A DNA stretch of 63,844 nucleotides, counting the filler, from Stramenopiles sp. TOSAG23-6 (lineage: Eukaryota), in NCBI GenBank assembly GCA_900128565.1. It is 9 parts of 9 records of this genome, joined end to end, with 100 filler letters (N's around TTAATTAATTAA, not from the genome) between each part and the next. Parts side by side here need not be neighbours in the genome. Positions count along the whole stretch, not along the records: positions 7,881 to 15,652 come from LT636521.1; 8 more parts are not named here. One strand, written 5' to 3'. Positions 7,881 to 58,166 of this stretch are shown here, piece after piece; position 1 is the stretch's first letter; each line of letters opens with the position of its first letter. Position numbers and translations under genes: made by a program. The notes beneath the pieces were generated by a model. It saw only the letters and a program-made list of their open reading frames with translations, ran no database searches and was not told the DNA's origin.

Positions 7881-7960
7881 TAAATTCGAAATTTGTTAGG
7901 TACAAAATTTCNGTACGAAANCTAAAAAAAAAAAATTTGAAATTCATAATGAAAAAGTAC

Positions 7961-8364
7961 ATAAATCGTCGGATCCGATTCGCACCTTCTCCACCTTCTG
8001 GAATGGCTCCTGCTGGTAGACCGGGTATCATTGACATAAATTGATTAAGAGGACCAAGATTCAATACACCTTCAAATTGATCTCTCATATGTGTTGTGAA
8101 AAAATATTTTTTTTAATAAAAAAAAATTCGTCAGGTACGAAATTTTCATAGTAAAAAATAAATAAATTCGAAATTGAAAAAAATAAAACATACATCCCGA
8201 AGGCTGAATTTTCCTTTAGATAAGCGATCCATCATTTCCGGAGCATTCTCCATAATTTTTGAATCTTTCATTGTTTCCATGAGGCCTTTTATATCACCCA
8301 TGCCAAGTAAACGACTTACAAAACCTCTCGCTTCGAATGGTTGAAAATCTTCAAAATGTTCGCC
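7961..8364 (-). CDS. SRP54: SRP54 fragment (mirror copy)
   Basis: Reverse complement of 15169-15572. Confidence 0.85.
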
Positions 8365-8508
8365 ATACAATGTCAAAATATATTTCAAATTTCATTGTTT
8401 TGTTAGACATCTTTTTCTTGTTTATTCTTGTTTATTCTTGTTTATTCTTGTTTAGGTACAACAATTCGTATTAAAAAAAATGTAGGGGAAACAATCATAA
8501 AGAAAATG

Positions 8509-8552
<44 letters not shown>

Positions 8553-8560
8553 GTTTTAAA

Positions 8561-8598
<38 letters not shown>

Positions 8599-8662
8599 AG
8601 GTATGAAATTTCATACGAAAATCTTTTTTTTTTTTTTGAAAATAATAATAAAAAAGACATAC

Positions 8663-10578
8663 AAATAACCAGCAACAACATCAGAAAAGTTATGACGATA
8701 ATCACGAGTTCGACTGACAATGCAAAGCACTATAGTATATCATATTTTGAATTTGTTAGGTATATCATACTAATAAAAGATAGCAACTAAATATCAACCA
8801 GAAAAAAAAATCGTTTTTTCTTAGGTACAAAATTTCGTATGAAAATTTAAAAAAAAAAATGAAATTATGAAAATGTACGCAGTTCCCCAAGCAGCAAATT
8901 GTGGAATAAGAAACAAAAACACTTTCCAAGCCTGTCCACCTCCACTCTGGAACATACCTGTTTTACCAGCACAATATAACGAAAATAAAGTACCACCCAA
9001 AGCGGACAATGCAGAATGTCCCGATGGAAAACTTAACTGTGTGTTTGGACAATATGGTACAAAAGAGTATAAGTGTTAGGTACACAATTTTATATGAAAA
9101 AAATATATATATTTAGGTATACAATTTCGTACCAAAAAAAAAAATTTCAAAATTTCAAAATTTCAAAATTTTTTTTTTTTTAAATAAAAAATTGAAAAAA
9201 TAAAAAAATACATGTGCTTCCAAAACATCTTTGATATCAAGATCATCCACTCCATTACCATATTGTTGAATACGTGCTAAATAATCTGGACGCAATCGAC
9301 CTGCGCTTAATTTAATACCTTCAAGAATACAAAATGCCATAGCAAATGATGTAGCAAGTGCTAATGCAAAATGGTGCATATCGTGTAAAGACCGTAAAAA
9401 AAATGTATTGTAGGACAATATTTGAAATTTTTTGATTTTTTTTCGTTAGGTACGAAATTTTTATAGTAATTTTTTTTTAGATTTTTTAGAAAAAAAAAAA
9501 TGAAATAATAAAAAAATATATTGTTGAAGAATAATGACGCAAATAGGTGGAACAACTAAGGTACCACCCATCAATAATGGTACAGTCACAGTATATAGTA
9601 TAGAAAATATTTCATTTTTTTAATGTGTTAGGTACAAAATTAACTACGAAAAAAAAAAAAAAAAAGTACTTCTTAGGGTTAGGGTTTTAAGATACATCTT
9701 TTCGATGTGGTTTATCAATAGCAAATGAATTCATTGTTCCACTTGTTGTTGTTGGATCACTTTCCAATGAAGCATTACCAAGAGGACCAACACGTACGTA
9801 TGGTTTTACAGTAAAATGCATAATTGCACCAATAATTTAATTTTGAAAAATATTTCAACAAAAAAAATTGAAATTCGTTAAGTACAAAAAGTCGTATATA
9901 TAGATTGTTTTTTTTTAAATTTGTTAATTTTTTTTTTTTAAATGAATGAATGAATGATGAAACCATACATGAGATACATTGCACACCATGCCCAGTCAGC
10001 ATAGTACGATTTGACCCACCAATGATATGTATTGTACACAAATATTTGTCGTTTGAGTTTTTGTTAGGTACAAAATCTTCATACAAAAAATAAAAAATTG
10101 AAATTCACGATGAAAATGTACAAGTATCCATTCGAGTCCACTTGAGACCAAAACATGATGACTTTGACCAGACATCAATATCCTCTTCCACAATAGCTTG
10201 CATACGATAAAAATCCTTTGCAAGATTAGGTGCACTAGCCACAACTACTCGAGCAAGCATCGAGTTATTTGTGTCTTTCGCATCATACGCCGTTAAAGCT
10301 CGACAGAATTCATCAAAGGTAATATGCCCATCTGTATCAACATCAATTTGTTTAATGAATTTAGTGGCTTTACGAAGTTCATCTCCTTGATATATATGAA
10401 GTGCTTTTAGAACTTCTGACACTTCTTCGACGGATAAGTCACCACTTTTATCTACATCGATTTTATCAAACGCAGCACGAAGTACACAGAGTTGTTCAGG
10501 TGTTATCTTTCCCTGTTTAAGACACGCATCTACAAGTGGTGTATTCTTTGGTGACATCTCTTGCATTTCAAGTGTCAT
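8663..10578 (-). CDS. EF-hand + PAP2 phosphatase (mirror copy)
   Basis: Reverse complement of 12955-14870. Confidence 0.8.
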
Positions 10579-10943
10579 TGTTAGGTATTTTGAATGAGTG
10601 AGGAAGGGACCAAACACGTAAAATTAATACTAGCTAGGAAATAAATGAAGGAGCAAGAGAAGAAGAAGAGAGCGGAAAGAGAGCGTAAAGAGAAAGAAAG
10701 AGAGAATTCGAATTTTCGAACATCAAAAAGCCATCAAAAACAAATTTTTGACATCAATGATTGACATCGAACCCACGAAATCCGGGTGTTTTTTATCACC
10801 CACGAAATCTGGGTCTCGATTATTTATTGTGTTTCGTAACATTGGTCTCTTCGCACATGTCAGAAAAAAAAAAGTAAAACACAAACCTTTGAATCTGAAT
10901 ATATTTTCTATTTCAATTCACTTGAAACTTTACTTAAACCAAA

Positions 10944-11631
10944 ATGCGTGTATTAGTTGGCGTCAAGAGGGTGATTGATTATGCTGTCAAAGTCCGTATT
11001 AAACCTGACAAGTCATGTGTGGAGACAAACAACGTAAAAATGTCAATGAATCCATTTTGTGAAATTGCTGTGGAAGAAGCAGTCCGTTTAAAGGAAAAGA
11101 AAATCGCATCAGAAGTTGTCGCGCTTTCCATTGGTCCTAAACAGTGCCAAGAAACATTACGTACAGCCCTTGCGATGGGTGCTGATCGTGCTGTTCATGT
11201 TTTGACTGACATGCGAACTGACACAGAATTACAACCACTCGCTGTTGCAAAATTATTCGCAGAAATTGCAAAAGAAGAAGAGGTTGGTCTTGTTATTATG
11301 GGGAAACAAGCAATCGATGATGATAGTAATCAAACAGGGCAAATGACAGCTGGTCTTCTTGACTGGCCACAAGGAACATTTGCTTCTGATTTAAGTGTCA
11401 ATGTACGTACAATTTGAATTCATTCTTTTTTCATACGAAATGTTGTACCTAACCAATATTTTTTTTTGTAAAGATCAAATTTTTTTTTTTTCGTACTTTT
11501 GTAATCAGTGTAAATAACACAACTTGTACATTTTATACATATATTTCATACTATTGGATGATAAAACAAAAGCTACAGTGAAGAGAGAAATTGATGGAGG
11601 TGAACAAACCGTTGAGATGAAATTACCTGCA
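10944..11631 (+). CDS. ETFB: Electron transfer flavoprotein beta subunit (3'-truncated by the fold-back)
   Basis: [18 protein letters not shown]...[13 protein letters not shown]...[15 protein letters not shown]; exon 2 (~11557-11631) encodes [22 protein letters not shown]. Confidence 0.95.
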
Positions 11632-11901
11632 GTATGTTTTTCAATTATTATTATTATTTTTGTATGAAAATTCTGTACTTACCAAAAAATTAAAAAAAAA
11701 AAAAAAAAAAAAAAAATTAAATCTCACAAAATCAAAAAAAAAAATTAAAAAAAAAAAAAAAAAAAATTTTTTTTTTTTTTTTTTTTAATTTTTTTTTTTG
11801 ATTTTGTGAGATTTAATTTTTTTTTTTTTTTTTTTTTTTTTAATTTTTTGGTAAGTACAGAATTTTCATACAAAAATAATAATAATAATTGAAAAACATA
11901 C

Positions 11902-12589
11902 TGCAGGTAATTTCATCTCAACGGTTTGTTCACCTCCATCAATTTCTCTCTTCACTGTAGCTTTTGTTTTATCATCCAATAGTATGAAATATATGTATAA
12001 AATGTACAAGTTGTGTTATTTACACTGATTACAAAAGTACGAAAAAAAAAAAATTTGATCTTTACAAAAAAAAATATTGGTTAGGTACAACATTTCGTAT
12101 GAAAAAAGAATGAATTCAAATTGTACGTACATTGACACTTAAATCAGAAGCAAATGTTCCTTGTGGCCAGTCAAGAAGACCAGCTGTCATTTGCCCTGTT
12201 TGATTACTATCATCATCGATTGCTTGTTTCCCCATAATAACAAGACCAACCTCTTCTTCTTTTGCAATTTCTGCGAATAATTTTGCAACAGCGAGTGGTT
12301 GTAATTCTGTGTCAGTTCGCATGTCAGTCAAAACATGAACAGCACGATCAGCACCCATCGCAAGGGCTGTACGTAATGTTTCTTGGCACTGTTTAGGACC
12401 AATGGAAAGCGCGACAACTTCTGATGCGATTTTCTTTTCCTTTAAACGGACTGCTTCTTCCACAGCAATTTCACAAAATGGATTCATTGACATTTTTACG
12501 TTGTTTGTCTCCACACATGACTTGTCAGGTTTAATACGGACTTTGACAGCATAATCAATCACCCTCTTGACGCCAACTAATACACGCAT
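11902..12589 (-). CDS. ETFB: ETF beta (mirror copy)
   Basis: Reverse complement of 10944-11631. Confidence 0.9.
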
Positions 12590-12954
12590 TTTGGTTTAAG
12601 TAAAGTTTCAAGTGAATTGAAATAGAAAATATATTCAGATTCAAAGGTTTGTGTTTTACTTTTTTTTTTCTGACATGTGCGAAGAGACCAATGTTACGAA
12701 ACACAATAAATAATCGAGACCCAGATTTCGTGGGTGATAAAAAACACCCGGATTTCGTGGGTTCGATGTCAATCATTGATGTCAAAAATTTGTTTTTGAT
12801 GGCTTTTTGATGTTCGAAAATTCGAATTCTCTCTTTCTTTCTCTTTACGCTCTCTTTCCGCTCTCTTCTTCTTCTCTTGCTCCTTCATTTATTTCCTAGC
12901 TAGTATTAATTTTACGTGTTTGGTCCCTTCCTCACTCATTCAAAATACCTAACA

Positions 12955-14870
12955 ATGACACTTGAAATGCAAGAGATGTCACCAAAGAATACACCACTTG
13001 TAGATGCGTGTCTTAAACAGGGAAAGATAACACCTGAACAACTCTGTGTACTTCGTGCTGCGTTTGATAAAATCGATGTAGATAAAAGTGGTGACTTATC
13101 CGTCGAAGAAGTGTCAGAAGTTCTAAAAGCACTTCATATATATCAAGGAGATGAACTTCGTAAAGCCACTAAATTCATTAAACAAATTGATGTTGATACA
13201 GATGGGCATATTACCTTTGATGAATTCTGTCGAGCTTTAACGGCGTATGATGCGAAAGACACAAATAACTCGATGCTTGCTCGAGTAGTTGTGGCTAGTG
13301 CACCTAATCTTGCAAAGGATTTTTATCGTATGCAAGCTATTGTGGAAGAGGATATTGATGTCTGGTCAAAGTCATCATGTTTTGGTCTCAAGTGGACTCG
13401 AATGGATACTTGTACATTTTCATCGTGAATTTCAATTTTTTATTTTTTGTATGAAGATTTTGTACCTAACAAAAACTCAAACGACAAATATTTGTGTACA
13501 ATACATATCATTGGTGGGTCAAATCGTACTATGCTGACTGGGCATGGTGTGCAATGTATCTCATGTATGGTTTCATCATTCATTCATTCATTTAAAAAAA
13601 AAAAATTAACAAATTTAAAAAAAAACAATCTATATATACGACTTTTTGTACTTAACGAATTTCAATTTTTTTTGTTGAAATATTTTTCAAAATTAAATTA
13701 TTGGTGCAATTATGCATTTTACTGTAAAACCATACGTACGTGTTGGTCCTCTTGGTAATGCTTCATTGGAAAGTGATCCAACAACAACAAGTGGAACAAT
13801 GAATTCATTTGCTATTGATAAACCACATCGAAAAGATGTATCTTAAAACCCTAACCCTAAGAAGTACTTTTTTTTTTTTTTTTTCGTAGTTAATTTTGTA
13901 CCTAACACATTAAAAAAATGAAATATTTTCTATACTATATACTGTGACTGTACCATTATTGATGGGTGGTACCTTAGTTGTTCCACCTATTTGCGTCATT
14001 ATTCTTCAACAATATATTTTTTTATTATTTCATTTTTTTTTTTCTAAAAAATCTAAAAAAAAATTACTATAAAAATTTCGTACCTAACGAAAAAAAATCA
14101 AAAAATTTCAAATATTGTCCTACAATACATTTTTTTTACGGTCTTTACACGATATGCACCATTTTGCATTAGCACTTGCTACATCATTTGCTATGGCATT
14201 TTGTATTCTTGAAGGTATTAAATTAAGCGCAGGTCGATTGCGTCCAGATTATTTAGCACGTATTCAACAATATGGTAATGGAGTGGATGATCTTGATATC
14301 AAAGATGTTTTGGAAGCACATGTATTTTTTTATTTTTTCAATTTTTTATTTAAAAAAAAAAAAATTTTGAAATTTTGAAATTTTGAAATTTTTTTTTTTG
14401 GTACGAAATTGTATACCTAAATATATATATTTTTTTCATATAAAATTGTGTACCTAACACTTATACTCTTTTGTACCATATTGTCCAAACACACAGTTAA
14501 GTTTTCCATCGGGACATTCTGCATTGTCCGCTTTGGGTGGTACTTTATTTTCGTTATATTGTGCTGGTAAAACAGGTATGTTCCAGAGTGGAGGTGGACA
14601 GGCTTGGAAAGTGTTTTTGTTTCTTATTCCACAATTTGCTGCTTGGGGAACTGCGTACATTTTCATAATTTCATTTTTTTTTTTAAATTTTCATACGAAA
14701 TTTTGTACCTAAGAAAAAACGATTTTTTTTTCTGGTTGATATTTAGTTGCTATCTTTTATTAGTATGATATACCTAACAAATTCAAAATATGATATACTA
14801 TAGTGCTTTGCATTGTCAGTCGAACTCGTGATTATCGTCATAACTTTTCTGATGTTGTTGCTGGTTATTT
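12955..14870 (+). CDS. EF-hand pair fused to PAP2/lipid phosphate phosphatase (3'-partial); introns 13412-13506, 13565-13698, 13838-13940, 14014-14130, 14322-14496, 14655-14813
   Basis: DVDKSGDLSVEE and DVDTDGHITFDEF EF-hands; the spliced product gives SYYADW, KLSAGRLRPDY, LSFPSGHS, SRTRDYRHNFSDVVAG (PAP2 C1-C3). Confidence 0.85.
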
Positions 14871-14934
14871 GTATGTCTTTTTTATTATTATTTTCAAAAA
14901 AAAAAAAAAGATTTTCGTATGAAATTTCATACCT

Positions 14935-14972
<38 letters not shown>

Positions 14973-14980
14973 TTTAAAAC

Positions 14981-15024
<44 letters not shown>

Positions 15025-15079
15025 CATTTTCTTTATGATTGTTTCCCCTACATTTTTTTTAATACGAATTGTTGTACCT

Positions 15080-15118
15080 AAACAAGAATAAACAAGAATA
15101 AACAAGAATAAACAAGAA
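15080..15118 (+). repeat. 10-bp tandem repeat (AAACAAGAAT) x~4 inside an intron
   Basis: Directly visible; mirrored at ~8415-8453. Confidence 0.85.
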
Positions 15119-15168
15119 AAAGATGTCTAACAAAACAATGAAATTTGAAATATATTTTGACATTGTAT

Positions 15169-15572
15169 GGCGAACATTTTGAAGATTTTCAACCATTCGA
15201 AGCGAGAGGTTTTGTAAGTCGTTTACTTGGCATGGGTGATATAAAAGGCCTCATGGAAACAATGAAAGATTCAAAAATTATGGAGAATGCTCCGGAAATG
15301 ATGGATCGCTTATCTAAAGGAAAATTCAGCCTTCGGGATGTATGTTTTATTTTTTTCAATTTCGAATTTATTTATTTTTTACTATGAAAATTTCGTACCT
15401 GACGAATTTTTTTTTATTAAAAAAAATATTTTTTCACAACACATATGAGAGATCAATTTGAAGGTGTATTGAATCTTGGTCCTCTTAATCAATTTATGTC
15501 AATGATACCCGGTCTACCAGCAGGAGCCATTCCAGAAGGTGGAGAAGGTGCGAATCGGATCCGACGATTTAT
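15169..15572 (+). CDS. SRP54: Signal recognition particle 54 kDa subunit, internal exons; intron 15340-15444
   Basis: GEHFEDF.PF...FVSRLLGMGDIKGL...GKFSLRD|MRDQF..VLNLGPLNQFMSMIPG. Confidence 0.92.
15340..15444 (+). mobile_element. Introner-like GT-AT intron in SRP54
   Basis: CGG GAT|gtatgtttt...cacaacacat|ATG AGA restores conserved FSLRDM; there is no AG in the intron 3' region. Confidence 0.85.
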
Positions 15573-15814
15573 GTACTTTTTCATTATGAATTTCAAATTT
15601 TTTTTTTTTAGNTTTCGTACNGAAATTTTGTACCTAACAAATTTCGAATTTANNNNNNNNNNNNNNNNNNNNNNNNNNNNNNNNNNNNNNNNNNNNTTAA
15701 TTAATTAANNNNNNNNNNNNNNNNNNNNNNNNNNNNNNNNNNNNNNNNNNNNTTGTTAGGTACAAAATTTCGTACGAAAAATAAATTCGAAATTGAAAAA
15801 AAAATAAAACGTAC

Positions 15815-16918: not shown

Positions 16919-17201
16919 TTTGAATATAGGATATTCAAGAATCATAATCCTATCCTATAATTAGAATTTCGTATTTCGTTCTTCCGTTGCCCAGTGGGTT
17001 TGACAATGTCGTATTTTTCTGTCAATTAAAATTCTTCTTAGATTTAGTTACCGGGTAATCATTGGAGTTCGAGTTCTCGGTCAAAGTTTGTCACACAATA
17101 ATTGCTAAATACTCCGCGTAAGGATAATTATATATTATATGCACATGTGTTCTATACAACATGTTGAGGTTTGTACGTTCATCTAGTATATAATACACCG
17201 A

Positions 17202-18656
17202 ATGAGCGCTTCATGGTTTTCATCTTTACCAATTCTTTCGCGAAAGCATCAGTCTCTATCAAAGTATTCCAAGCAAAATGACACATTTCAACTCCCGTGT
17301 AAATGTTTATCTACAGCTTTGAAACCTTTGGTTTATGTATCCAAATGTCACGATGATAATATATCTTTATTGCGAGATGCTGTTCGCGTTGACTTTACAG
17401 ACAAGTACATTGGTTGTATTTTGGCTCGTGCATCTCTTAGAAGAACTGAAACTATTAATAAGAACTCAACTATTGTTGCGCAGGTTGGTACTAATTGTCA
17501 AAAGAACTTAGTAACCTGCCTTCATAGTACCAGGCGACCATTCTTTATCAAGAAAATACTGGATAACGGGGCGATCCATCGTTTGGGTAATATACATGTT
17601 GGTGATGTGCTCATATCAATCGCTGGAAAGCACTGTGCAACAATGTCAACTAGCTGTGTCCGGCGCCTCATCAAAGAAGCTCCACGGCCCTTAACTATTT
17701 GGTTCCAAAGGGGGGGTTGCAAATTTCAGACAATAAAAGACAATGATATAGATAATGAAACTAGTCCTCTATTGATGGATCACTCATCCATACAAGTGCA
17801 TACACCATCGATAAATGAAAAAAAAACAGAAATTGAAAAATCCACAAAAAGTCAAAAAAAAACAAAAATCTCTTTATCATTGAAAAAAGCGAAGGCCCAC
17901 ATTGAAGCTCTATGTCAATCAAATTTATTACCCAATGATCTTATTATTTCTTTACAAAATGTGTCTAAAAATTTGAACATTGAGTCTGAAAACTGTACTA
18001 TAGAAATGAAAACAATTCCAAAAATAAAGACAAAAAAAAATGTGCAGGTGAGTCTTACAACAGAGGCTACTCAGCAAATTCGAAATTCGTTAGGTACGAA
18101 ATTAGGTACGAAAAAAATTAGTTTAATTTCAAATTTGCCAAGTACTACTACTCCGATTGTAACAACACAAAATAAATTGTGTGATATAAAAAAATATACC
18201 CAACAAAATGTAAAGAGCAATATAGATATGGATGAAAATAAGGAAAATAATTTTTGTCCATTTGAAGTAATGCGTAACTATCTTCAAAATAACCCTAACC
18301 CTAATGGACCTACCCCTAACCCTAGTAATACAACTCAAAACTCATTTATATTGAGTGACGCATTGTTACCTTTTACCTCGGAAATATATACATATCTGCA
18401 CAATGCTGGTGCTAAGTTAAACATGGACAAATTGAATAAAAATGGTAAAAGGAAAATGAATCAAAATAATAGAAATAATAAAAATAAAAGAAGAAAAAAA
18501 AAGACAAGTAAAAACACGAAATGTAACAAAAAAAAGTCAACAGAAAAAAAATCATTAATAAAAGAAAAACGCATGCGAGAAGCTGCTAATGTGGCCGAAG
18601 AGCAAAGAAAATTGCGCGTAGTTTCCAATGGAAAAAAATATATTCGGAATCAATAA
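17202..18656 (+). CDS. PDZ-domain protein with basic low-complexity C-terminus
   Basis: FIKKILDNGAIHRLGNIHVGDVLISIAG...VRRLIKEAPRPLTIWFQR (PDZ). Confidence 0.7.
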   Translation: MSASWFSSLPILSRKHQSLSKYSKQNDTFQLPCKCLSTALKPLVYVSKCHDDNISLLRDAVRVDFTDKYIGCILARASLRRTETINKNSTIVAQVGTNCQKNLVTCLHSTRRPFFIKKILDNGAIHRLGNIHVGDVLISIAGKHCATMSTSCVRRLIKEAPRPLTIWFQRGGCKFQTIKDNDIDNETSPLLMDHSSIQVHTPSINEKKTEIEKSTKSQKKTKISLSLKKAKAHIEALCQSNLLPNDLIISLQNVSKNLNIESENCTIEMKTIPKIKTKKNVQVSLTTEATQQIRNSLGTKLGTKKISLISNLPSTTTPIVTTQNKLCDIKKYTQQNVKSNIDMDENKENNFCPFEVMRNYLQNNPNPNGPTPNPSNTTQNSFILSDALLPFTSEIYTYLHNAGAKLNMDKLNKNGKRKMNQNNRNNKNKRRKKKTSKNTKCNKKKSTEKKSLIKEKRMREAANVAEEQRKLRVVSNGKKYIRNQ

Positions 18657-23679: not shown

Positions 23680-25321
23680 ACAAGCTCTTTGAGATCATCT
23701 GCAGCATTTGTATTTTCTGGAAACACAGTCAAAAGACATTCTTCCGCAGTTTTGTTCCATCCACTATTTGCGTGATCACCACTACTAGGGTTAGGGTTTC
23801 CATATGTTTTAAGAATTCCATTTCGAATAGTTGCCAACTGTTCCATCACAAACTTTGATGTAATTTGTGAAGCATCAGGTGCCTTCATTATAGTTAACTC
23901 ATCCAAAAATCTTTGGACTTCACAAAGAACAGGTATCTGATCCACAAGAACTTCATTAATGTATTTTCGAATGCGTCTGTTTTGTGAAAAAAAAAAAAAT
24001 TACAAAAAAAAAATCATTAGGTACAAAATTTCGTATGAAAAACCAAAAAAAAAAAAATTACAAAAAAAATATATTTTGTTTAGGTACAAAATTTCGTATG
24101 AAAAAACAAAAATAAATAAATCATGATACAAAAAAAGAAACGTACAAAATTGTGTCTTTTCTGTGGCCTGAAAATTGATATCGTTTCCGACACTCACCTT
24201 CACACATTTATTTTGGAAAAATATTTCAAAAAAAAATCTAAAAAAATTTGTTAGGTACAAAATTTACTATAAAAAAAAATTTCGATTTTTTTGTAAAAAA
24301 AAAATAATAAAACATACATAATATTATACATTATTAACCAACACTGCGCTTCATGTTTTGTTAGTTTCAATAAATTTCCTGGTTCAACTGTCGTCCATGT
24401 ATTACGTATGTATTTCTCCCAAGTGCCTTCAGGAGTTCTCCGAGTCCATGTATTGTGAAACAATATTTATTTTTTTTTTTACCAAAAAAAAAAAAAAAAA
24501 ATCGTTAGGTACGAAATTTCGTACGAAAAAAAAATAAATTCCAAATTCAAAAAAAATGTAAAAAAATAAAACATACATGGTGGATTTTCAATGAGTGGCA
24601 CGATACAAATCATGACATCGTGAGTGTCTAAAATCCTTGTCATTACAGCTAATGGTAATTTTGTAACATGCTCTGTCATGTATCTAAGTACTGTAATAGC
24701 AGACACAGCAGATCGGAAATTAATCTCACTCACTTGTCGCTCTAAGTCCTCGAGTGCTGTTCTGGCATTCATTTCTTTTACAATTTGACTTGCATCTTTT
24801 TTGGGTTCTTTTTCAGGAGGTTTTGTACACACCAAATGAAGCGTCTTCCGTACACAGTAATCCACTAGCTCAATAATGAGGTCTCCTGCAGCTTCGGCGA
24901 CGTAATCGTGATACATGATGACTTCAAGTAAATTAACCAAAGCTGCTTCGTGGTAACGAATGAAATATGTTCGAAGTGAGCCTCCATTTCTTTGTGAAGC
25001 ACGAAGTTTAATTATTGGATATAGATATTGACCCCATGCCTCGACAACAAGCAGTTCATGGATTAAGAGACCTATTTTATCGTGTGTTACAAGTGATTCA
25101 AGTACAAAGTTCTCTGAGTTTGAAACAACACAGTGATGAGCTTGCAGATTAAGTTGTTGAATTTGTTGGTGTTGTTTAATCCACGGAACTGTACCTACTT
25201 CAGGTAACGCAAACCTCTGCAAGTTTTCTATTATACGTTCTGCTTCTGCTGCAGACAAAACCGCACATCCTGCTTGAACATCATTATTATCCGTGTTGGA
25301 GATATTTAATAAATTATTCAT
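23680..25321 (-). CDS. ZMYND10: ZMYND10/BLU dynein-arm assembly factor (3'-partial); introns 24448-24576, 24206-24317, 23977-24145
   Basis: QLNLQAH, LIHELLVVEAW, YHEAALVNLLEV..YH, LVDYC.RK, ENPP|WTRR, EAQCWL, LRIRKYINEVLVDQIPVL. Confidence 0.9.
24448..24576 (-). mobile_element. Introner-like GT-AT intron in ZMYND10
   Basis: CCA T|gtatg...cacaatacat|GG ACT CGG restores conserved ENPPWTRR. Confidence 0.88.
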
Positions 25322-31350: not shown

Positions 31351-31572
31351 NNNNNNNNNNNNNNNNNNNNNNNNNNNNNNNNNNNNNNNNNNNNTTAATT
31401 AATTAANNNNNNNNNNNNNNNNNNNNNNNNNNNNNNNNNNNNNNNNNNNNTTTCNTCNTGATTTTNAGATTTTTTTTTTATAGAAAATTTTGTACCTAAA
31501 CAAAAAAGTTTTTTTTTTACGATGAAAATTTTGTACCTGACAATTTTTTTTGAAATATTTTTCACAGTACAT

Positions 31573-33701
31573 GAACGTTATACTACTTTTGATATTTGTT
31601 GTTGCTTCAATTCATTTCCTCAATAATATTTTATTGTATGTTTTCACCAATATTCTAATTGGGGTCGCTGATAAGCGCTTACTTTCTCTAGTGTTCCTCA
31701 TAGCAACAGCAGTATTATCAGCATTTCTTGATGCGCTGACAGTTGTTGCTGTCGTGTCAAGTGTTTGTACTGGCTTCCTTGGTGTGTATTATCACGTTGT
31801 AAACAAAATCAGTCTTCCTCAATTACAGTGTAAAACTCATCTTACAAATAAAAGTTCGGAAGTATCTAATAGTATTTTTTCCCATCAAGTTCCAAATAGT
31901 GAAGACGTGAAGTTATTAATTTCTGAAAATAGTGATATACCAACACCATGTTGCTCTCCACATTACTGTACGTACGTTTTTTATTTACATTCCAAATGTA
32001 TTTTTTTTTTCATACAAAATTCCGTACCTAAAAAATTTCAAATGTTTGAAATATTTTTTCTTCAACATAAAATCTCCAAAAGTAAATCAGAATAAAATAT
32101 CAATTTCACCTAGCCGTTCTCTTAAAAGCAAGAATAAACAAACTCCAGGGCAGTCATCAAATGCAAATAATGAATGTTTGTTTGATGAAATAGAGCTTGG
32201 GCAATTGAACACTACAAAAGGTAAAACAAATAAAGACCAGAAAATAAATGAAAAAACCTTAAAAAATACAGTTCAAATGGAATCAAGTGGTATGAAACGG
32301 ATACCTTCCCTAAAACAAATTCTTAATGATGAAATTTGCCCTCCTGAAATACCTCGGGAAAATAAGTGTTTGAATAAAATACGCCGTCAGGAAATTCAAA
32401 ATAATATCGAAGATTTCAAATCATTTTTACGATCTCTCATGTACGTTTTCATTTCAATTTCGAATTGTTTTTTCATACGGAATTTTGTACCTAACGATTT
32501 TTTTTTGAAATATTTTTTCATAATCCATGTACGTTTTCAAACTCTAACCCTATTCAAAAGAAAATTAGCAAATTGTGCACCTAACAAAAAATTTGAATGT
32601 AAAATATTTGTATGATCTTTCATTATGCACAGTGCAGTAGGTACCGTTTGTGGGGGTATTACCACTACCGTTGCTGAGCCACAAAATTTAATCATTTCAG
32701 ATCGTTTAAATTGGGGTATGATTGACTTCTTTCTGAAGTTACTTCCTGTATTTTTTATTGTTTTTCCTACAACTTGTCTAATGTGCGTATTCTTGGAACA
32801 TAAAAAATGTCTTGGTTACGGAGTTAAAATGCCACCAAAAGTTCGTATTGTTCTTCAAGAGTTTGCAGATCAAGAGCTCAATAAGCTAGATGATGTGTTA
32901 AAAGCGGAGTTATTCATACAATGTATTGGTGTTGTTATTCTTTGTGTTGGACTTGTTTTGCATGTACGTTTTCCAAAATTATTATTTTTTTTCGTATGAA
33001 ATTTTGTACCTAACCAAAAAAAATGTTCTTATGAAAAAGAATATTTTTCCACAAAACATATTGCTGAAGTTGGTTTCATCGGATTACTTGTACTTGTATT
33101 TGTAACGTCATTAAATGGAATTACTGATGAACGCGATATAGCGCATGCTTTTATGGATTCAATGCCATTCGTTTCACTCATTGTTATTTTTTTCGGTGTG
33201 GTTGCGATAATTCATGTCCGTTTTATTTTTNAAATTTCAAATTTATTTGTTTTATACGAAATTTTGTACCNAANAAAAAANGTACAAAAAAANTATTTTT
33301 TNACACTATACGATCAAGAATTATTTAATCCAATTATTTCGTGTGTTCTTTCCATGAATGATAAATATCAACCTGCCGTTTTGTATACCATAAATGGAGT
33401 TCTTTCGACAGTTTCAGATAACGTTTTTGTAGCAACAGTATTTATTGATGAAATAGTTAAAACGTATAAAGATGGTACTATTAATGATGAACAATTTGAA
33501 CGTCTTGGAATTGCACTGACTGCAGGAACAAACTTACCTTCAATGGCAACTCCAAATGGTCAAGCTGCATTTTTGTTTGTCTTAACTTCAAGTATTGCTC
33601 CACTAGTCAATTTAACATATCGTAAGATGTGTATCATGGCTTTACCTTACACTGTGGTTGTCACATTTGCAGGATTATTTAGTGTTCTGTTTTTGATTTA
33701 G
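31573..33701 (+). CDS. nhaB: NhaB-type Na+/H+ antiporter (5'-partial, multi-exon)
   Basis: LSAFLDALTVVAVV, FLRSLI|MHSAVGT..GG..T.VAEPQNLII, LH|IAEVGFIGL, SDNVFVATVFI, GTNLPSMATPNGQAAFLF.LTS..APL..L.Y..M..MALPYT match proteobacterial NhaB motifs. Confidence 0.88.
32441..32623 (+). mobile_element. Two head-to-tail intron elements (32441-32528 and 32529-32623) with no exon between them
   Basis: CTC AT|gtacg...aatccat|gtacg...ctttcat|T ATG CAC; each unit has its own cctaac motif. Confidence 0.8.
32964..33059 (+). mobile_element. Introner-like GT-AT intron in nhaB
   Basis: TTG CAT|gtacg...cacaaaacat|ATT GCT GAA GTT GGT restores LHIAEVG. Confidence 0.85.
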
Positions 33702-34990: not shown

Positions 34991-35162
34991 AAATATTGGC
35001 AACATGAAGTATGTTGTAGATATATGAAATCCAAAATGTAAAATATCATACAAATAATTATTAACAAAATGATACAAAATGATAAAAGAAAATTATTATG
35101 TGATTTTGAGATTTTTTAATTTTTTGTTTCAATTTAGTTTTTTTTCATACGAAATTTTGTAC

Positions 35163-36051
35163 CTAACGATTTTTTTTTGAAATATGTTCAGAATTTCTCA
35201 TCATTCGTCTTTCAATTAACGGATCTATTGAATAAGCAATTAATACTGCCGTAATGACATCCACAGAATAATGACCACGCAAAGCGATGAGTCGAATGGC
35301 TTGAAGAAGATTTAAAACGATCGTAACTAAAGCAAATTTTGTTTCACCTCCGTGAAGGAATTCCATTGTTAAAAGAGTCATGCCTAAAACATGTCCACTA
35401 GGATTAAAAATAAATCCTCGACATGTATCATTTGTAGGTGGCTAAAATGATAGATGTATATAAAGAGAAATTATTGGGTAAGTCAAAAAAATATATATCT
35501 ACAAAAAATTAAAAAAACAAAAAGTAAAAATGTAATATATAAAGGAGACGTACCCAATCGCCTTCAACAGGTACAAAACCTGGAGGTAAAGGAAGTCTTG
35601 TTGTCATGCCAATAAACATACGACAACAAATACAAGCTGTTCCTTTGACAAGTAAATTCCATCTATTTTGTTGAAAGCAACGAAACATAATGTATAACAT
35701 TCCACCAACAACTAAAAAAGAGTTACACAATGCGAGTAACTCATTTAAGAAAGGATACTGCTGAGATAACTCCAATATAAAATATAGATACTCATGACCT
35801 AAATCAAAGACGGTATCAATGAAGACAACTCTACACTCTATACCAATCCCAATGACTATACTACTCGCAAAAAAAACAAGTAACATTGGAATGGGAAGGT
35901 TCGGGCGTAAAAGTATCCATAAAACAAAGAGCTGTAAACACAATAGAGTAACCAACAAAGAATCACCCTCTATTCCGGTTGTATCAGACAATAGTTGAGT
36001 AAAAGTGGCCGGCAATTCTACCAAAAAATCAAGAAATTGTACAAAAACCAT
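35163..36051 (-). CDS. Phosphatidylcholine:diacylglycerol cholinephosphotransferase-like (PDCT/ROD1, SMS/PAP2_C superfamily); canonical GT-AG intron 35442-35553
   Basis: TTRLPLP.GF....GDW|PP, SGHV, LQAIRLIALRGHYSVD. Confidence 0.7.
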
Positions 36052-39188: not shown

Positions 39189-39343
39189 NNNNNNNNNNNN
39201 NNNNNNNNNNNNNNNNNNNNNNNNNNNNNNNNTTAATTAATTAANNNNNNNNNNNNNNNNNNNNNNNNNNNNNNNNNNNNNNNNNNNNTCGTACGAAATT
39301 TTGTACCTAACGATTTTTTTTGAAATATTTTTCCAAAATACAT

Positions 39344-40427
39344 GAATACTATTGACGAGCATTCAGCTTTGCAAACAGAACTACATCACATACAAAATGA
39401 AAAGAGAAGATTAAGAGAAATATATCAAGCTATGGACCAACAACAAAAAGCATGGATCTCTGATGTACACGAAATTCATATGCGAGAGAGCAAAGAGTTA
39501 ATTGGAAAGGCGCAACTCATTGAGGACCAGCATGTACGTTTTTCTATCATTTCAATATCGAATTTATTTTTTCGTACTACATGTTGTACCTAACAAAAAA
39601 AAAATTTAAAATATTTTCCCAAAATACAGAAAGAATCCTTAGACGCTCTATCATTCATAACTAAATGCTACAATACAAACTTTGATGCAGCGTTAGAAAA
39701 AGTTACGACAGCAAAAAAATCTTTAGCTTCTATTCTGCAATTTCAGGAAAATATGATACAGTCAAGTATTATTGAATCAAAAAATTTCAATAATAATACA
39801 AACTTAGCAAAGCAGGATTTGCTTCAATATAGAAAAAGAGAAAATATTTTGTATACACCAAAATGTTTTGACTCACATAGTGCTACCCTAGAGTATATAC
39901 AAAAGAAAACATCTGCCTTGGAAGAGTTTCTACTACGTAAAACAAAATTTACACAAAATGATAGAGAAAAATATAAATTCCAAATTGACGAAGTAAAACA
40001 ACAAAGAGGAGAATTTGCTGAAACCGTAATTTTACTACAGAAACAGTACGATGAAATTAAACAAAACGTGGAAAATATGACAGTAGAAGTGAATAAAGAA
40101 GAATCTTTTAATAAAGAATTAAGACAAGAAATAGTCAGTCCAGTCATTAGGACTCAAAACATAGAATTAGAAAAATCACTGATTTCTGAAACACACGAAA
40201 TCCAAGATAATATATCAGAAGGACAGTTGTTTAGGCTAAAGTTGGAGAAAGAACTATACCCAAAATCTCACACATTACATATGGAAAGACATAAAATTTG
40301 TGCTCTCCAAGTAGAACTTGGAGAAATTGCTGTAGAATTAGAGAATGTAAAACATCATACATATGTTGAACATGCTGTGGCAGAGCTGTTAAAACATGGG
40401 GGAAAATCTGAAAACATAGGAAAATAA
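39344..40427 (+). CDS. Coiled-coil hypothetical protein (5'-partial); GT-AG intron 39534-39629; mirror copy at 45882-46965
   Basis: Continuous frame after removing CAT|gtacg...aaatacag|AAA. Confidence 0.6.
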
Positions 40428-40649
40428 AGAAATTAATTAACACAATCTTCTCCATAACCCTAACCCTAGGTAATTTTTTCGTTTTCAAATTAATTTACGT
40501 CGTGCAGAAGAAGAAGTTGGAACTGTGTTCTTTTCATAATATAGCGTAGAGTTCCGTGGAGTATTCATTGAAATTAGATTGCTCATACGAATTCATCTTT
40601 CATAATAGGATAGACTTAATTTCAATAGTATCATAAAGTTTCTGGCTGC

Positions 40650-42077
40650 ATGGTACCGGGAAATATGACCAAGGAAGTAATAGGAGGAACAAAGCGCCCT
40701 GCTCCCATGAAGGGTACAGCAGCAGCTAAGAGGAGACGTGCTTCCCGTAATAGAGACGGAAACGAAAAAACTCCACATAGACGTCTTAAACGCGTGTTAC
40801 TCAAATATGGTATGAAGCGACGAACGGTGAATTTGCAAGAAGCATATAAAAAGGAACTTAGTTGGATGCGTCCAAAGTTAGCGAAGAATGCACGGAAAAA
40901 AGAGCTTTTGATTGAAAAGGCTGCTTTAAAACAAACAGGCGCTAATCCCCCCCTTGAAATAGACCTATATGACTCAAGCGCTTCGTCATCATCTTGTATG
41001 AGTGAAAATGATTATAGTGATGGAGAATTTCTTTGGAGCTCCAGTGATGACGACTGCATGAAAACTGACGAAGATGCCCAACCGGTAGTTGCTATTGTCG
41101 AGCCTAAAGTTAACAATTTTGCGGTAGATTTTTGTAAGAATGGCCCAATACCAAATGTAGGAAATGTATTAGAAATTTGGAGTGACGATGATTTGAGATA
41201 TGAAAATCCTCTTTGCATAGCGACAGTTCTTGCAGATGAGGAGTGTATCAAACGTAGGAGCAAGCGCATTGTGAATCTGATTCGCCAATACAAGCATAAT
41301 TTCCGAAGTTTACGACGACCGATAGCAGAGAAATGTCAAGAATTTAAACAGAACTTTAAAAAAGAGCTTGAAGCCAAGCGGAAACTCCGAAAAGAGATTG
41401 AAGCAGCAGATGCTGATAGTGAAGATAATGAAGATAATGAGAAAAAAGAAAATGAGTTCAATGCAGGAAATAATCTCTTACAAAAAAAAGAACCTAGTGA
41501 AGGTTCTGGTATTGGAACGACACGGCGTAAACGACGCCATTATAGTGAAATGAAAGGAATGTATGGCTCAAATGGTTTGAAGTCGAAAGCAAATAAGTAT
41601 AAATTTCGGCACTATCACTATACCCATGGTTTGAACCGTACAGGAAAGGAAAGTTTCAACTTTCTCAATATGAAAAGTATGTACGACACTCAAGCAACGC
41701 GAACAATATGTGCTTGTCAAAACTGTGATAATGGCGTTTTACCTTTAAGTTTGTATTGCCTCTCTCACATTGTACATGATGAGAATCAAACCTTGTATAA
41801 AGCGTGCAGTGTTGCCGGCTGCAATGGTCCAGTACTACGCTTGGAAGAATGTGATGATAGATATGCGCATATGTATTCACTATGTGAAATGCATCGCCTA
41901 GAAGAACAAAAGAATGTTGATGAAGAAATTTCTGGAGAATATACCCAACAGCAATTTACTTGCCCGAAATGTGAACAAGTATCGGTTTGTGATATGGGAG
42001 TCACACAAATATCATGTTCTGTGTGTGGTCAGGTACTTTTATTACAAATCACGGAACCATTACCAGATGCAGTTTGA
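40650..42077 (+). CDS. zf-C3Hc3H protein (KANSL2/INO80D-like)
   Basis: C...NC...VLPLSLYCLSHI.HDENQTLYKACS...C..PV...LC.MH. Confidence 0.75.
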   Translation: MVPGNMTKEVIGGTKRPAPMKGTAAAKRRRASRNRDGNEKTPHRRLKRVLLKYGMKRRTVNLQEAYKKELSWMRPKLAKNARKKELLIEKAALKQTGANPPLEIDLYDSSASSSSCMSENDYSDGEFLWSSSDDDCMKTDEDAQPVVAIVEPKVNNFAVDFCKNGPIPNVGNVLEIWSDDDLRYENPLCIATVLADEECIKRRSKRIVNLIRQYKHNFRSLRRPIAEKCQEFKQNFKKELEAKRKLRKEIEAADADSEDNEDNEKKENEFNAGNNLLQKKEPSEGSGIGTTRRKRRHYSEMKGMYGSNGLKSKANKYKFRHYHYTHGLNRTGKESFNFLNMKSMYDTQATRTICACQNCDNGVLPLSLYCLSHIVHDENQTLYKACSVAGCNGPVLRLEECDDRYAHMYSLCEMHRLEEQKNVDEEISGEYTQQQFTCPKCEQVSVCDMGVTQISCSVCGQVLLLQITEPLPDAV

Positions 42078-42289
42078 GAGGACTGTTGGAGAATATAATG
42101 AATTTATCTTTTTATATAAAAAGTATTATATAATTGCGTAATTTTATTTATAGTATGGCATAAAAGAGCAAAATACAAAATATTGAAAAATATAAAATAC
42201 GGAGAAAAAAATATACTCTTAAATATCCTTTAATTAGTAAAATTCCTACAATAGGAAAATAAATTTTGTAAGTTCCATTTGCGTACTAT

Positions 42290-42384
42290 ACGTATTGTGA
42301 AAAAATATTTCAAAAAAAAAAAATTGTTAGGTACAAAATTTCGTATGAAAAAAAAAATAAATTAGAAATTCATATAAAACATAC
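42290..42384 (-). mobile_element. Intron element with GT-GT ends in the presumed 3' UTR of PP4R3
   Basis: atgtGT|gtatgtttt...gtacctaac...cacaatacGT|atag. Confidence 0.7.
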
Positions 42385-42408
42385 ACACATTTAATATATC
42401 ACCATTTC

Positions 42409-44050
42409 TTATATGACACGTTGTCTTTTCAAAGATGGTGAACCTGTTGCAACTATAGTATTTGTTACAATCACTTCTTTATTTTTCGTATTAGGGTCAA
42501 TATCATTTTTAGTCACTCGCGCATCAACCATATTTTTATCTGAATCTATATTTTCCGAAAAAGTCGGCATTTGATTATGCATTTTGGAAAAATAATTCAA
42601 AAAAAAATTCGTTAGGTACAAAATTTCGTACGAAAAAAAAATCAAATTGAAAAAAAAAAAAAAAACGTACATCATCATTATCATCATCAAAATACATTTC
42701 TTCATCTTGTGCATCCNAAAAATCTCTGTTGTCGCCTAGCCGACTCAATGGCTCCAGCACCAGTCATTCTACTATGCAATAAATCTTGCCTATTGGTAAA
42801 CGGTCGCGAATCTTCATTATTTTGGTTGTACCTCTCGAGTAAACCAGAAAGTATCTGAGCACTTCCGCCATCCTTTTGTTCAAATATAGACCTCATTTTC
42901 TTAGATTCAATAATATATGTCACAAGACTTTTTACATTTTCAGCACGAATAAATTCTATTAACTCAAGTATGGCAGAATCTAAAAGATTATTCCGAAATT
43001 GATTCCGATCCCATGCTTCAAACACAGGATCTAGTAAATTATTTTTAATCAAATGTCGATTATAGAATTCGTCCTGTTGTCCGATACAAGCCCGTACAAA
43101 ACGTAATGCGCTACAAACGACATAACGTTCTCTATATAGCAACAATCGCAGTACTTTACTGATTACATTATTTCTTAGTATAAAAAATTTAATACGAAAT
43201 GTGTGATGTTGAACACAAAAACGAAGTAATTCACATATTGTAGTTTTACTTGATTTTCCAGATTCATTCTCCATTGATCCGTCATCACTCTCTTTGATTA
43301 TTTCAAAAGGTTGAATGAGCCAATCCATATAATGATCATAAAATATCTGAAGAAAAGCATCACGCTGAATGACATCCATAGCATCTATATCAAGTAAAGA
43401 GGTCAACATACCTGTTGCCTCTGCACGCATGCCTCCATCCCCTTCACTAGCAACAAATGAAACAAATAACCACAAAAGAGAGGGGAACTTTTCCATATTT
43501 TTATTCTGTAGGTCAGTTTTTTTCTTGATCAATTCTGCTGCCTTGTTATTCAGAGATAATGAGCTATTTCCCATTTTTCCAGAAAAGATTTCTCCACTTT
43601 GAACCTCTTGTATACTTCTTTTGCGTTTGTTAGAAACTTTCCTACTAGGTGGAGCTGGGTGTGCACTACTCTTACTATCTATGATGTATATTCTCAAGAG
43701 TTGTGGATCATGCATGACAACACATGAAAGAATTTCAATACAGCATCTTTTTGAATCAGCTGATAAGGGTAACACATCTACAGATGATGTGTTATGACCG
43801 TGTGTTGTACCGATAGCAAAAAGCCTCTCAAAAATTGAGAAAAAGCAACCTTTTGCATTTTCAACATTCTTAGAACCAGTCGATACTAGTGACTCATCAG
43901 ATGCATTACCTGTAGCTGATGCTGGTGTAGTACTCTCAGTAGATGTTGCATTGGATTCAGTGTCCTTTTTGTCACGGTTTTCTATACTACCGCCAGTATC
44001 GCCCTCATTACGACTACATAAATATAGAGAGCAATAAAAAACATCACGAT
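42409..44050 (-). CDS. PPP4R3: PP4 regulatory subunit 3 / SMEK (5'-truncated)
   Basis: FLQIFYDHYM, ICELLRFCVQHHTFRIKFFILRNN, ALRFVRACIG..DEFYNRH.IKNNL, NNLLDSAILELIEFIRAEN.K.L. Confidence 0.9.
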
Positions 44051-44231
44051 CATCCTGTTGTAAGTTTTTTGCTAATTAAAGGATATTTAAGAGTATATTT
44101 TTTTCTCCGTATTTTATATTTTTCAATATTTTGTATTTTGCTCTTTTATGCCATACTATAAATAAAATTACGCAATTATATAATACTTTTTATATAAAAA
44201 GATAAATTCATTATATTCTCCAACAGTCCTC

Positions 44232-47243: not shown

Positions 47244-48160
47244 GGTTGTCAAATGTCTGTTTGTTGGAGTCATTCAAAAATTCAAAAAGAATTTTCAAAA
47301 AAAATGATACAAACAATCACACAACAAAGATTGAGATTTGAAAGAGTTGCAAATATTTTAGAATTACCTATTGAACCATTTCTTGAAAATATTTCAAAAG
47401 TAAAATCTAGAGTATGGGGTGATCATACAGAGAAATATATGTATGTTATATTCAAATTATGAATTTTTTTTTTTTGTTGAAATAATTTTTTTTTTTTTTG
47501 AAATTTAAAATTTTTTTTTTTTTTGAAATTTTTTTTTTTTTTGAAATTTAAAATTTTAAAAAAAAAAAAAAAATGAATAACAAATGAGTAACAAAACATT
47601 TAAAAAAATATTTCTTCACAATATAGGCATGTTCTTGTACCCATCATGGATATGTTTAATCATTCACACACTGCTCCACGATTAAGCCCTCAAAGAAATA
47701 ATAATAATCAATTTATAGAATACAGATGTATGTTTTATTTTTTTTTAATTTTTTGTCTAAATTTTTTTCGTACGAAATTTTGTACCTAACAAATTTTTTT
47801 TTAGGTAAAAAAATTTTGAAATATTTTTTTAATTTTTTGTCTAAATTTTTTTCGTAGTAAATTTTGTACCTAACAAATATTTTTAGATTTTTTTTGAAAT
47901 ATTTTTACAAAATACATTTCGTTCCAACACAAACATTAAACAAAATGATCAAGTTTTTGATAACTATGGAATGAAATCTAATGCTCAATTATATAAATTG
48001 TATCAATTTGTTCAAAAAAATAATCCAAGTGACACGTGTCAATCAATACAAGAATTTTCAAAAGATAAAATTAATGAATTATTTGACAACAATATTTTTC
48101 AGACGACAAGAACATTTTCAAAAGAAATATGTGCAGCATATACATGATTGTTTGTCCTAC
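47244..48160 (+). CDS. SET-domain (Rubisco LSMT/SETD3-like) methyltransferase, internal exons
   Basis: Spliced frame gives VKSRVW...M|HVLVPIMDMFNHS...QNDQVFDNYGMKSNAQL; right boundary approximate. Confidence 0.75.
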
Positions 48161-56247: not shown

Positions 56248-58166
56248 TCAAAAATGAACCGTTTCTTTAATAACCTCATAATTTCGAAGTGCATCTGGAA
56301 CGTATACTTTTTCAAATGCCATGTTTTAAAAAAAATACATCAGAAAAAAAAATGTTAGTAAAAAAAAAAAAAAAAATTGTCAAAAAAAAAAAAAAAAATT
56401 TTCCATGATTTTTTTTTTTTTGAAATATTCTAAAACGTACAATGGAAAAGGAGTATCATAGCCACATACTCGTCTTAGAGGCGCCTCTAAATTAAGAAAA
56501 CAATTTTCTTGAATATATGCAGTAATTTCACCAGCAAATCCGCCTGTTATTGGAGCTTCCTACATTTTAAAATTAAAAAAAAAAATTGTTAGGTACAACA
56601 TTTACTACGAAAATATTTCTACATTTAAAAAAAAAATGTAAAAAAAAAAAAAAAAAAATTTGGTATTTATGTACGAAATTAACTACGATTTTTTTTTAGG
56701 GTTAGGGTTAGGGTTACGTACATGAGACACAATTAATCGACCAGTCTTCAAAACTGAGTTTCTTACCATATTTCGATCCCATGGCAATACTGATCGTAAA
56801 TCAATCAATTCACACGAAATACCGTCTTTTTCTGCCATAGTGCATGCTTCCTCTAAAACGTCAACTTGACTACCCCATCCAACAACAGTAACATCTGTTC
56901 CCTTTTTTTTCAAATATATATTTTAAAAAAAAAATCTTTTTTTGTTTAGGTACAAAATTTTGTATGAAAAAAAAAAAAAAAAAAAAAAAAAAACTTTTTT
57001 TTTTTTAATTTTTAGGTAAAAAATTTCCTATGAAAAAAAAAAAAAAAAAAAAAATTTAAAAAAAAAAATTTAAAAAAAAAAATTTAAAAAAAAAAAANNN
57101 NNNNNNNNNNNNNNNNNNNNNNNNNNNNNNNNNNNNNNNNNNNNNNNNNNNNNNNNNNNNNNNNNNNNNNNNNNNNNNNNNNNNNNNNNNNNNNNNNNNN
57201 NNNNNNNNNNNNNNNNNNNNNNNTTTTGAAAAAATATACATTTTTTTTTTTTTTTTTTTTTTTGGGGAGAAAATTTCGTTTAAAAAAAAATTTCAAAATT
57301 TAAAAATTTTTTTTTTTTTTTTTTTTTTGTTAGGTACGAAATTTCGTATGAAAAAAAATTTCAAAATTTCAAAATTTTTTTTTTTTTTTTTTTTTGTTAG
57401 GTACGAAATTTCGTATGAAAAAAAATCTCAAAAAAAAAAATGTTGTACGATTCATTAAGAAAACAAACATGACAATTTTAAGACCTGGAGTACCTGCAAA
57501 GTATGCTTCTGGGGATTGTGAATGATAGAGACCACCATGCCCAACAGCACTACACGGTGCTCGTATGGTTAAGCCACCACAATTAAACATATTTCCTGAA
57601 CGGTATCTATATTTTGCTGCTTCGTTTACAATTTGATCAAATGCAGGAAAAATATAATCTGCGAATTGAATCTCTGCAATACATTTGTACCCTTGAGTGG
57701 CATACCCAATACCAAATCCTGCAATGCCCTGTTCACATAATGGTGTGTTAAACACACGCGCTTCTCCGAATTGTTCACGTAGTCCCGTGGTACAACGAAA
57801 AACACCTCCAAACGCAACATCTTCGCCAAAAATGACGGAATTCTCTTCTGTTTCAAGAAAAATGCGCATTGCATCGTTTAGTGCTGTAAATAAGTTCATT
57901 TTTTCCATTTTTTCATCAATGTCTCGTTCCATTCGTATTATTGGTACAACAGAAGATAAATGACGACAGTTTTTTTTAATCAGTGATGGGTAGCTATCTA
58001 CAGAAGGAGGACTATAGAATTTGGAATCAAACCTTTGCGTGGTCACACTGGAGTACATGCTTCTACATGGAATGCTGAAACCCTTACTAGACTTTGAAAC
58101 TGGCCATTGTGTTCGTTTTAGACCTAAATCTATGATTCTATAAGATCTTGGAGTAGTAAATATCAT
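56248..58166 (-). CDS. BCKDHB: Branched-chain 2-oxoacid dehydrogenase E1 beta; introns include 56560-56721 (GT-AG) and 56321-56440 (GT-AT)
   Basis: [92 protein letters not shown]. Confidence 0.95.

Follow-up and report, generated by a model that had tools for sequence, protein, structure and literature searches.

A palindromic motif in a repeated family of introns that mostly seem to lack a 3′ AG, read as a probable piece of an intron-generating element

Introners, as described in PMC9860276 and PMC11282704, may carry their own donor and take the acceptor from a duplication of the target. The intron family described here resembles the Chrysochromulina-type and Micromonas IE introners of these papers in comprising many similar short introns with an apparently element-borne donor, a duplicated-target acceptor and weak or no terminal inverted repeats. 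It differs from them in a duplication of 2 nt rather than 3-9, in an acceptor that is AT, TT or GT where the Micromonas example has AG, and in a strong element-borne branch motif. A second comparison is offered by the non-canonical U2 introns of the larvaceans Fritillaria borealis and F. pellucida, for which a transposon origin has been proposed (PMC13326754). AT is their commonest 3′ end (34% and 44%), as it is here, and the same YAY triplet tends to precede the donor and to close the intron, a likeness to our family; however, their main donors are AG and the introns are diverse, whereas here the donor is GT in 38/41 modelled introns, one family dominates and the host is a protist.

Three further systems share some traits with the family. 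Minor (U12) introns, including the expanded Physarum set, have an RT start, an extended branch motif with CCT.AC and tolerance of non-AG ends (10.1101/2020.10.12.336362); a U12-type reading was nevertheless rejected, as the donor is RTAYGT and not RTATCCTT and the branch motif is TACCTAAC and not TTCCTTRAC. The internally symmetrical (stw)introns of Hypoxylaceae also proliferate, and in PMC8469720 their symmetry is proposed to be tied to spreading and not to splicing; unlike the introns here, they have 45-55-nt terminal inverted repeats, no target duplication and canonical ends. Nonconventional introns of euglenids likewise show non-canonical ends and junction repeats, but, as reviewed in PMC11282704, they rely on pairing of both RNA ends and do without spliceosomal signals, whereas the present family has a spliceosome-like donor and branch and yielded no conserved fold. 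The term 'GT-AT' is absent from the available portion of PMC12130899, and in what our literature search covered, no GT-AT introner family was described from a protist; the supplements of introner surveys (marine metagenome families), which lay outside its scope, could include one. Judged by its sequence, the host family would be an introner variant with AG-less ends, new in that respect. With introns that mostly seem to lack AG, this protist would represent a second wholesale change of acceptor, after that of larvacean tunicates; here the donor is normal and a single element is involved, so that the replacing signal can be pinned down. Gene finders that require AG would mis-model such a genome.

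The window, by which we mean the whole stretch of 63,844 nt that was analysed (assembly GCA_900128565.1, Stramenopiles sp. TOSAG23-6), is eukaryotic DNA in nine contigs, each of ~7.7 kb, with N spacers between them. Positions 7881-15652 form a 100% inverted duplication and 39289-42256 recurs at 44053-47020; these inverted, perfect or near-perfect duplications (7881-15652 and 39289-47020) follow a pattern typical of amplification chimeras. The best named relative of the SRP54 gene is Aplanochytrium (66%) and BCKDHB matches are taxonomically mixed, and a stramenopile host is weakly suggested. For the contig at 23602-31350, 62% of sampled words were present in one seawater metagenome run. Among 22 sequencing runs, the 12 labelled as RNA contained small shares of at most 0.18, which we do not count as evidence of expression or splicing. 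An Rfam scan of the window yielded 0 matches at gathering score and no snRNA, and a scan of 81 frames in the window yielded no transposase and no gene for the U2AF subunits, which in the Fritillaria system are duplicated and divergent. The gene labels ZMYND10-like and SET-like, assigned to genes in the window, are our presumption. Short runs of two or three telomere-type repeats (TTAGGG/CCCTAA) occur at 1672, 13849, 18293, 26723, 30317, 48743, 56696, 60975 and 62296, within introns, frames and spacers.

The palindrome copy and its intron family

An initial annotation, made from the sequence alone, drew attention to a perfect palindrome running into CTAAC, and the core does read in this way (Table 1). 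The palindrome ends in the TAC of TACCTAAC, whose presumed branch A was placed by the yeast-type branch consensus. Folded alone, this copy forms a 6-bp stem of -5.1 kcal/mol (z -7.2). Homologs of the PAP2-family gene that holds the copy were sought and none were obtained; the gene's last upstream junction (14655-14813) therefore rests on the reading frame and on the spacing of PAP2 motifs. Past the motif follow, in order, a T28 run, an A39 run, a second branch motif and an SRP54 exon, which starts at ~15169 and whose N-terminal part is absent. An AT end at 15168 fails to join the PAP2 and SRP54 exons in frame. The locus is probably a mis-join of a PAP2 intron with an SRP54 intron, and as such leaves the palindrome copy without a checkable 3′ end. 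The second occurrence of the copy, on the minus strand, is there because 7881-15652 is duplicated, and for no other cause.

Table 1. Positions in the window of the palindrome copy, its locus and selected introns of the family
Feature	Position	Strand	Remarks
Family core (T-run end, 16-nt palindrome, branch-like motif)	14914..14937	+	reads TTCGTATGAAATTTCATACCTAAC
Perfect 16-nt palindrome	14917..14932	+	6-bp stem and 4-nt loop; one of 2 perfect among 62 copies
Branch-site-like TACCTAAC	14930..14937	+	branch A presumably at 14936
Donor GTATGT of the intron holding the palindrome copy	14871..14876	+	after the last assembled exon of the PAP2-family phosphatase gene
PAP2-family gene with four upstream introns	13720..14870	+	frame open after intron removal; weak Pfam PF01569 matches; C-terminal exon missing, last junction uncertain
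Upstream introns of the PAP2 gene	13838-13940, 14014-14130, 14322-14496, 14655-14813	+	
T28 and A39 runs	14938..15020	+	probable mis-join, PAP2 intron to SRP54 intron
Mirror of the palindrome copy	8596..8619	-	not independent; within the 100% inverted duplication 7881-15652
GT-AT intron, complete, with the other perfect palindrome copy	24448..24576	-	
SRP54 GT-AT intron	15340..15444	+	best canonical alternative 9.4 bits lower
BCKDHB GT-AT intron	56321..56440	-	has TATT box and TACTAAC but no palindrome; 45.6 bits above its best canonical alternative
BCKDHB GT-AG family intron	56560..56721	-	box lost; conserved His fixes GT register
NhaB back-to-back GT-AT introns, zero-length exon	32441..32623 (32441-32528, 32529-32623)	+	
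NhaB intron, best GT-AC or tied AT-AT register	33216..33311	+	box 19 nt from end; contains N
Copy without termini	18088..18112	-	both 12-nt units read TTCGTACCTAA; antisense within PDZ open frame

The palindrome belongs to a repeated intron family of ~95 nt, of which 62 motif copies were aligned after setting aside the mirror copies in both duplications and about nine others with a truncation, an N or a variant core. As TACCT served to locate the copies, alignment columns 17-21 could not vary; 10 of the 62 are intra-intron repeats, and 52 are left without them. The family motif lies far above chance (12 matches to the strict pattern versus 0.00 in 100 shuffles), and many similar introns sit in unrelated genes, as is characteristic of introners. 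From 5′ to 3′, the element consists of RTAYGT, a T-rich spacer, TTTC-RTACGAAA, TTTYGTACCTAAC, a further T-rich spacer and AAATATTTT..CMAATAC. Its middle contains two tandem 12-nt units (columns 1-11 and 13-23, commonest TTCRTACGAAA and TTYGTACCTAA), and the first unit with one extra T is self-complementary (TTTCGTACGAAA); thus the junction of both units reads as a 16-nt palindrome. The most fitting reading of the palindrome would be a pair of tandem 12-nt self-complementary units, of which the second holds the branch-like motif, an arrangement that would suit a DNA-binding dimer, in line with the transposase-site alternative of the initial annotation. Outside the window, viral contigs gave 0 family matches, and a metagenome scan whose pattern put no constraint on the palindrome gave 16 loci, of which 0/16 were family members.

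At the four CG positions of the alignment, the 62 copies showed mostly CG, TG or CA, with counts of 19/1/23, 31/3/3, 12/45/2 and 15/4/28, and both changes in the 14914-14937 copy are also of this kind. We considered methylation-driven CpG decay as the source of the variants; the pattern fits, but CpG o/e across the window is 0.93, i.e. there is no depletion, and the proposal is unsupported.

Several copies deserve separate mention. The branch core occurs two or three times in tandem in the introns 14322-14496, 24145-23977, 47728-47917, 48627-48442, 61549-61825 and 57224-57468, which reflects either true internal duplication or assembly error at homopolymers. The copy without termini (18050-18140) adds no stop to the PDZ open frame (17187-18656) in which it lies antisense. 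Another copy, at 35146-35200 (+), is possibly a 3′ UTR intron of a Usp gene, and the same plus-strand copy read backwards (35163-35240, minus strand) gives a convergent PDCT-like gene its last codons and stop. The copy at 61304-61401 has 8-nt inverted ends if the duplicated AT is counted, and has the appearance of a GT..AT intron on both strands.

Modelled introns and their 3′ ends

We modelled 41 complete introns from the motif, an end matrix and the reading frame; introns interrupted by a contig end or a gap were left out, as were the palindrome copy's own intron and one ambiguous ETF intron. Their ends were GT-AT in 26, GT-AG in 7, GT-TT in 3 and AT-AT in 2, with a single case each of GT-AC, GT-GT and AT-TT. 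Consistent with U2-type introns, the donor was GT in 38/41 and G occupied +5 in 33/41, but the acceptor was AG in only 7/41. The initial annotation had proposed 3′ ends without AG, and this was supported: AG is absent in 34/41 modelled introns, 28 of which end in AT, and homolog profiles preferred the AG-less ends in 5/5 tests. Among the AG-less ends, position -2 is A in 29/34 and position -1 is T in 33/34. Once the introns, up to five per gene, are removed, most genes read through in an open frame; the last junctions of PP4R3, a prolyl-hydroxylase-like gene and the genes at 47.2-48.3 kb and 61 kb are less sure, as stops follow within the stretch inspected.

Scoring against homolog profiles covered six junctions, with 1312-2697 in-frame candidates; the model ranked first in four and lay at most 0.4 bit from the first in two. 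The GT register scored 162.1 versus 157.5 at the BCKDHB AG intron and 92.1 versus 91.5 (0.6 bit, hence weakly fixed) at the GT-AT intron ending at 56440, i.e. the choice between GT..AT and a register shifted by 2 nt is well fixed for one AG intron only. Removal as GT..AC, sparing the two duplicated bases, was tried and rejected, as it causes a frameshift in BCKDHB. As had been claimed, the BCKDHB intron at 56321-56440 carries TACTAAC; its start also resembles the family's 3′ tail in reverse complement, and it may be an inverted copy that acquired its own branch site. Two GT-AG introns, at 35442-35553 (-) and 47441-47626 (+), lack the family branch core; they are possibly older and usable as controls.

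By its position and its yeast-like form, TACCTAAC is likely to be the branch site, as initially proposed, and the distance from the putative branch A to the intron end is 29-57 nt in 39/40 introns and 138 nt in one. A second palindrome had also been reported near the 3′ end. The reported 9-mer GAAATATTT is not itself palindromic, whereas AAATATTT, the 8 nt at its core, is; close to where the 41 complete introns end at 3′, the exact 9-mer was found in 11, AAATATTT in 23 and AATATT in 30. ATATT lies 18-20 nt from the intron end in 32/33 introns with an exact box, the 33rd having two boxes with the first at 19. This downstream box may have a role, and a fixed position for it is at the least supported. 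Furthermore, a TATT box 18-20 nt before the end was present in 33/34 AG-less introns and in 3/7 AG introns (p=0.0016), the AG class being small, with 2 of its 7 introns lacking the family branch. The spacing is partly circular, since the 3′ ends were chosen by frame and by a matrix that had been trained on copies with the box, and an inherited tail would give a fixed spacing even without any ruler.

At the other end of these introns, the 2 nt before the donor are identical to the last 2 nt in 26/34 AG-less introns (23 AT, 2 TT and 1 GT; permutation p 0.002), as would be the case for a target duplication serving as acceptor, but only 3 of the 26 matching pairs are non-AT. Terminal inverted repeats were short: they reached at least 4 nt in 9/41 introns and 6 nt, a length that marks some introner families only, in 1/41.

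Pairing, origin and placement of the 3′ cut

Contrary to the initial annotation, the palindrome does not appear to be structurally conserved. It is perfect in 2/62 copies, and the number of possible pairs is six in 11/62, five in 27/62 and four or fewer in 24/62. The closing pair is G-C in 23/62, A.C in 32/62 and T.C in 7/62, and is thus broken in 39/62; the commonest 16-mer begins with A rather than G (11 versus 7 rows, alignment A1), which accounts for the 32 A.C cases. The predicted probability of the 16-nt stem exceeds 0.5 in 24/62 copies, with a median of 0.12, and identity in the 5′ arm ranges from 0.52 to 0.92. The double compensatory change (T7/A16) on which the structural claim had leaned occurs in 1/62 copies (Fisher p 0.20-0.33), and A16 is also seen twice alongside C7. 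In the covariation check that had been suggested, pairing was 69.4% versus 70.0% after shuffling and the score 0.084 versus 0.091, a value reached by 359/500 shuffles. RNAalifold predicted no consensus pair on the aligned copies, and folding of 7 complete introns as wholes gave z from +0.5 to -2.2 and no common fold.

In the account that we favour, and hold to be probable, the palindrome was inherited as part of a mobile, intron-generating element and is not a working RNA hairpin. The element would have inserted at the DNA level, supplying its own U2-type donor and branch site and duplicating 2 nt at the target, mostly AT, the downstream copy of which would become the acceptor. The second 12-nt unit would carry the branch signal and be kept by sequence, and the first would drift, mainly through C/T and G/A substitutions within CG positions. 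The introns would presumably be removed by the major spliceosome with relaxed acceptor choice, the cut being placed by the element's end, for which the TATT box 18-20 nt upstream is the best candidate signal. This account draws on the anatomy of the element, the absent covariation, the open frames and the fit to homologs after removal; splicing itself is inferred from the last two.

The initial annotation had instead let the 16-nt palindrome fold as an RNA hairpin, or bind a protein, and so position the 3′ cut in place of AG. The 14914-14937 copy does fold well alone, five or six pairs can still form in 38/62 copies, and C-to-T in the 3′ arm preserves a G-U pair. However, the lack of covariation largely refutes this reading; four or fewer of the six pairs are possible in 10/34 AG-less introns and one has no palindrome at all, the distance from stem to end ranges over 29-57 nt, and within such a stem the branch motif would have its first three bases hidden. 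Nor is a stem of at least five pairs linked to the type of acceptor (24/34 AG-less and 3/7 AG introns, p=0.20). We consider the reading improbable, and the hairpin story should be dropped, since covariation takes more than one double change within a family of repeats; the palindrome is real, but only as a loosely kept middle piece of the intron, with no sign of RNA hairpin function. Barely better are the prospects of a smaller stem around the branch motif (YGT in front, ACR behind, ACCTA loop) that presents or masks the branch site, which we also think unlikely. Its covariation score was 0.241 versus 0.177 ± 0.020 (reached in 1/500 shuffles), changes on both sides numbered 9 versus 4.4 (3/500 shuffles), several whole introns contain it in their predicted folds, and the direction of the CG changes agrees with it (G16 and C24 kept). 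Yet the test was devised after seeing the data and concerns three pairs in related copies, the C15-G25 link has a Fisher p of 0.047 with 62 copies and 0.086 with 52 and ranks 9-11 among 231 column pairs, a C.A mismatch occurs in 5/62, the stem's probability exceeds 0.5 in 18/62, there is no consensus fold, and the presumed branch A would itself be paired. We treat it as a lead only.

The box is tied to the AG-less class while the stem is not, and thus the TATT box rather than the palindrome would be the candidate substitute for AG; this contrast also makes the box, in preference to the palindrome, the target for mutation. How the box would act is less certain. It is conceivable, if doubtful, that the spacing and all motifs, box included, are merely inherited from a young repeat, with the spliceosome taking the first tolerable YAT- or YAG-like site in the tail and leaving the box unread. 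The tail is indeed family sequence, the palindrome segment is about equally constant in length, and the A at -2 and T at -1 of AG-less ends amount to a sequence preference; but three AG introns have lost the box and kept the family branch core, diverged AG-less introns keep TATT with substitutions and no length changes behind it, and one intron fits GT-AC at 19 nt despite an AT 2 nt upstream. Speculative to a similar degree is a ruler in place of AG recognition, in which a factor would bind the AAATATTTT box and the major spliceosome would cut 18-19 nt from the start of the box whatever the dinucleotide (AT, TT, GT or AC). One mobile element could then yield a clean intron after nearly any T, copies that gain AG would be free to lose the box, and the small stem at the branch motif may help to present the branch site. 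We think it very unlikely that canonical GT-AG pairs close to the modelled ends are used for the cuts, often with the second GT at +4, or that nothing is removed. Some stop-free GT/GC-AG alternative within 30 nt is available in 25/34 AG-less introns (10 with the same donor, 13 with GT at +4), but 9/34 have none; at all five AG-less junctions tested against homologs the best such pair was lower, by 9.4, 11.6, 12.4, 18.9 and 45.6 bits, and altered conserved lengths, and under the model the frame is fully open in six genes that have three to five introns each.

A bacterial-type NhaB Na+/H+ antiporter gene at 31570-33701 (+) has ~130 extra residues and six family introns. In its back-to-back pair (Table 1), the AT that ends the first intron directly abuts the second donor, an arrangement that suggests recursive splicing.
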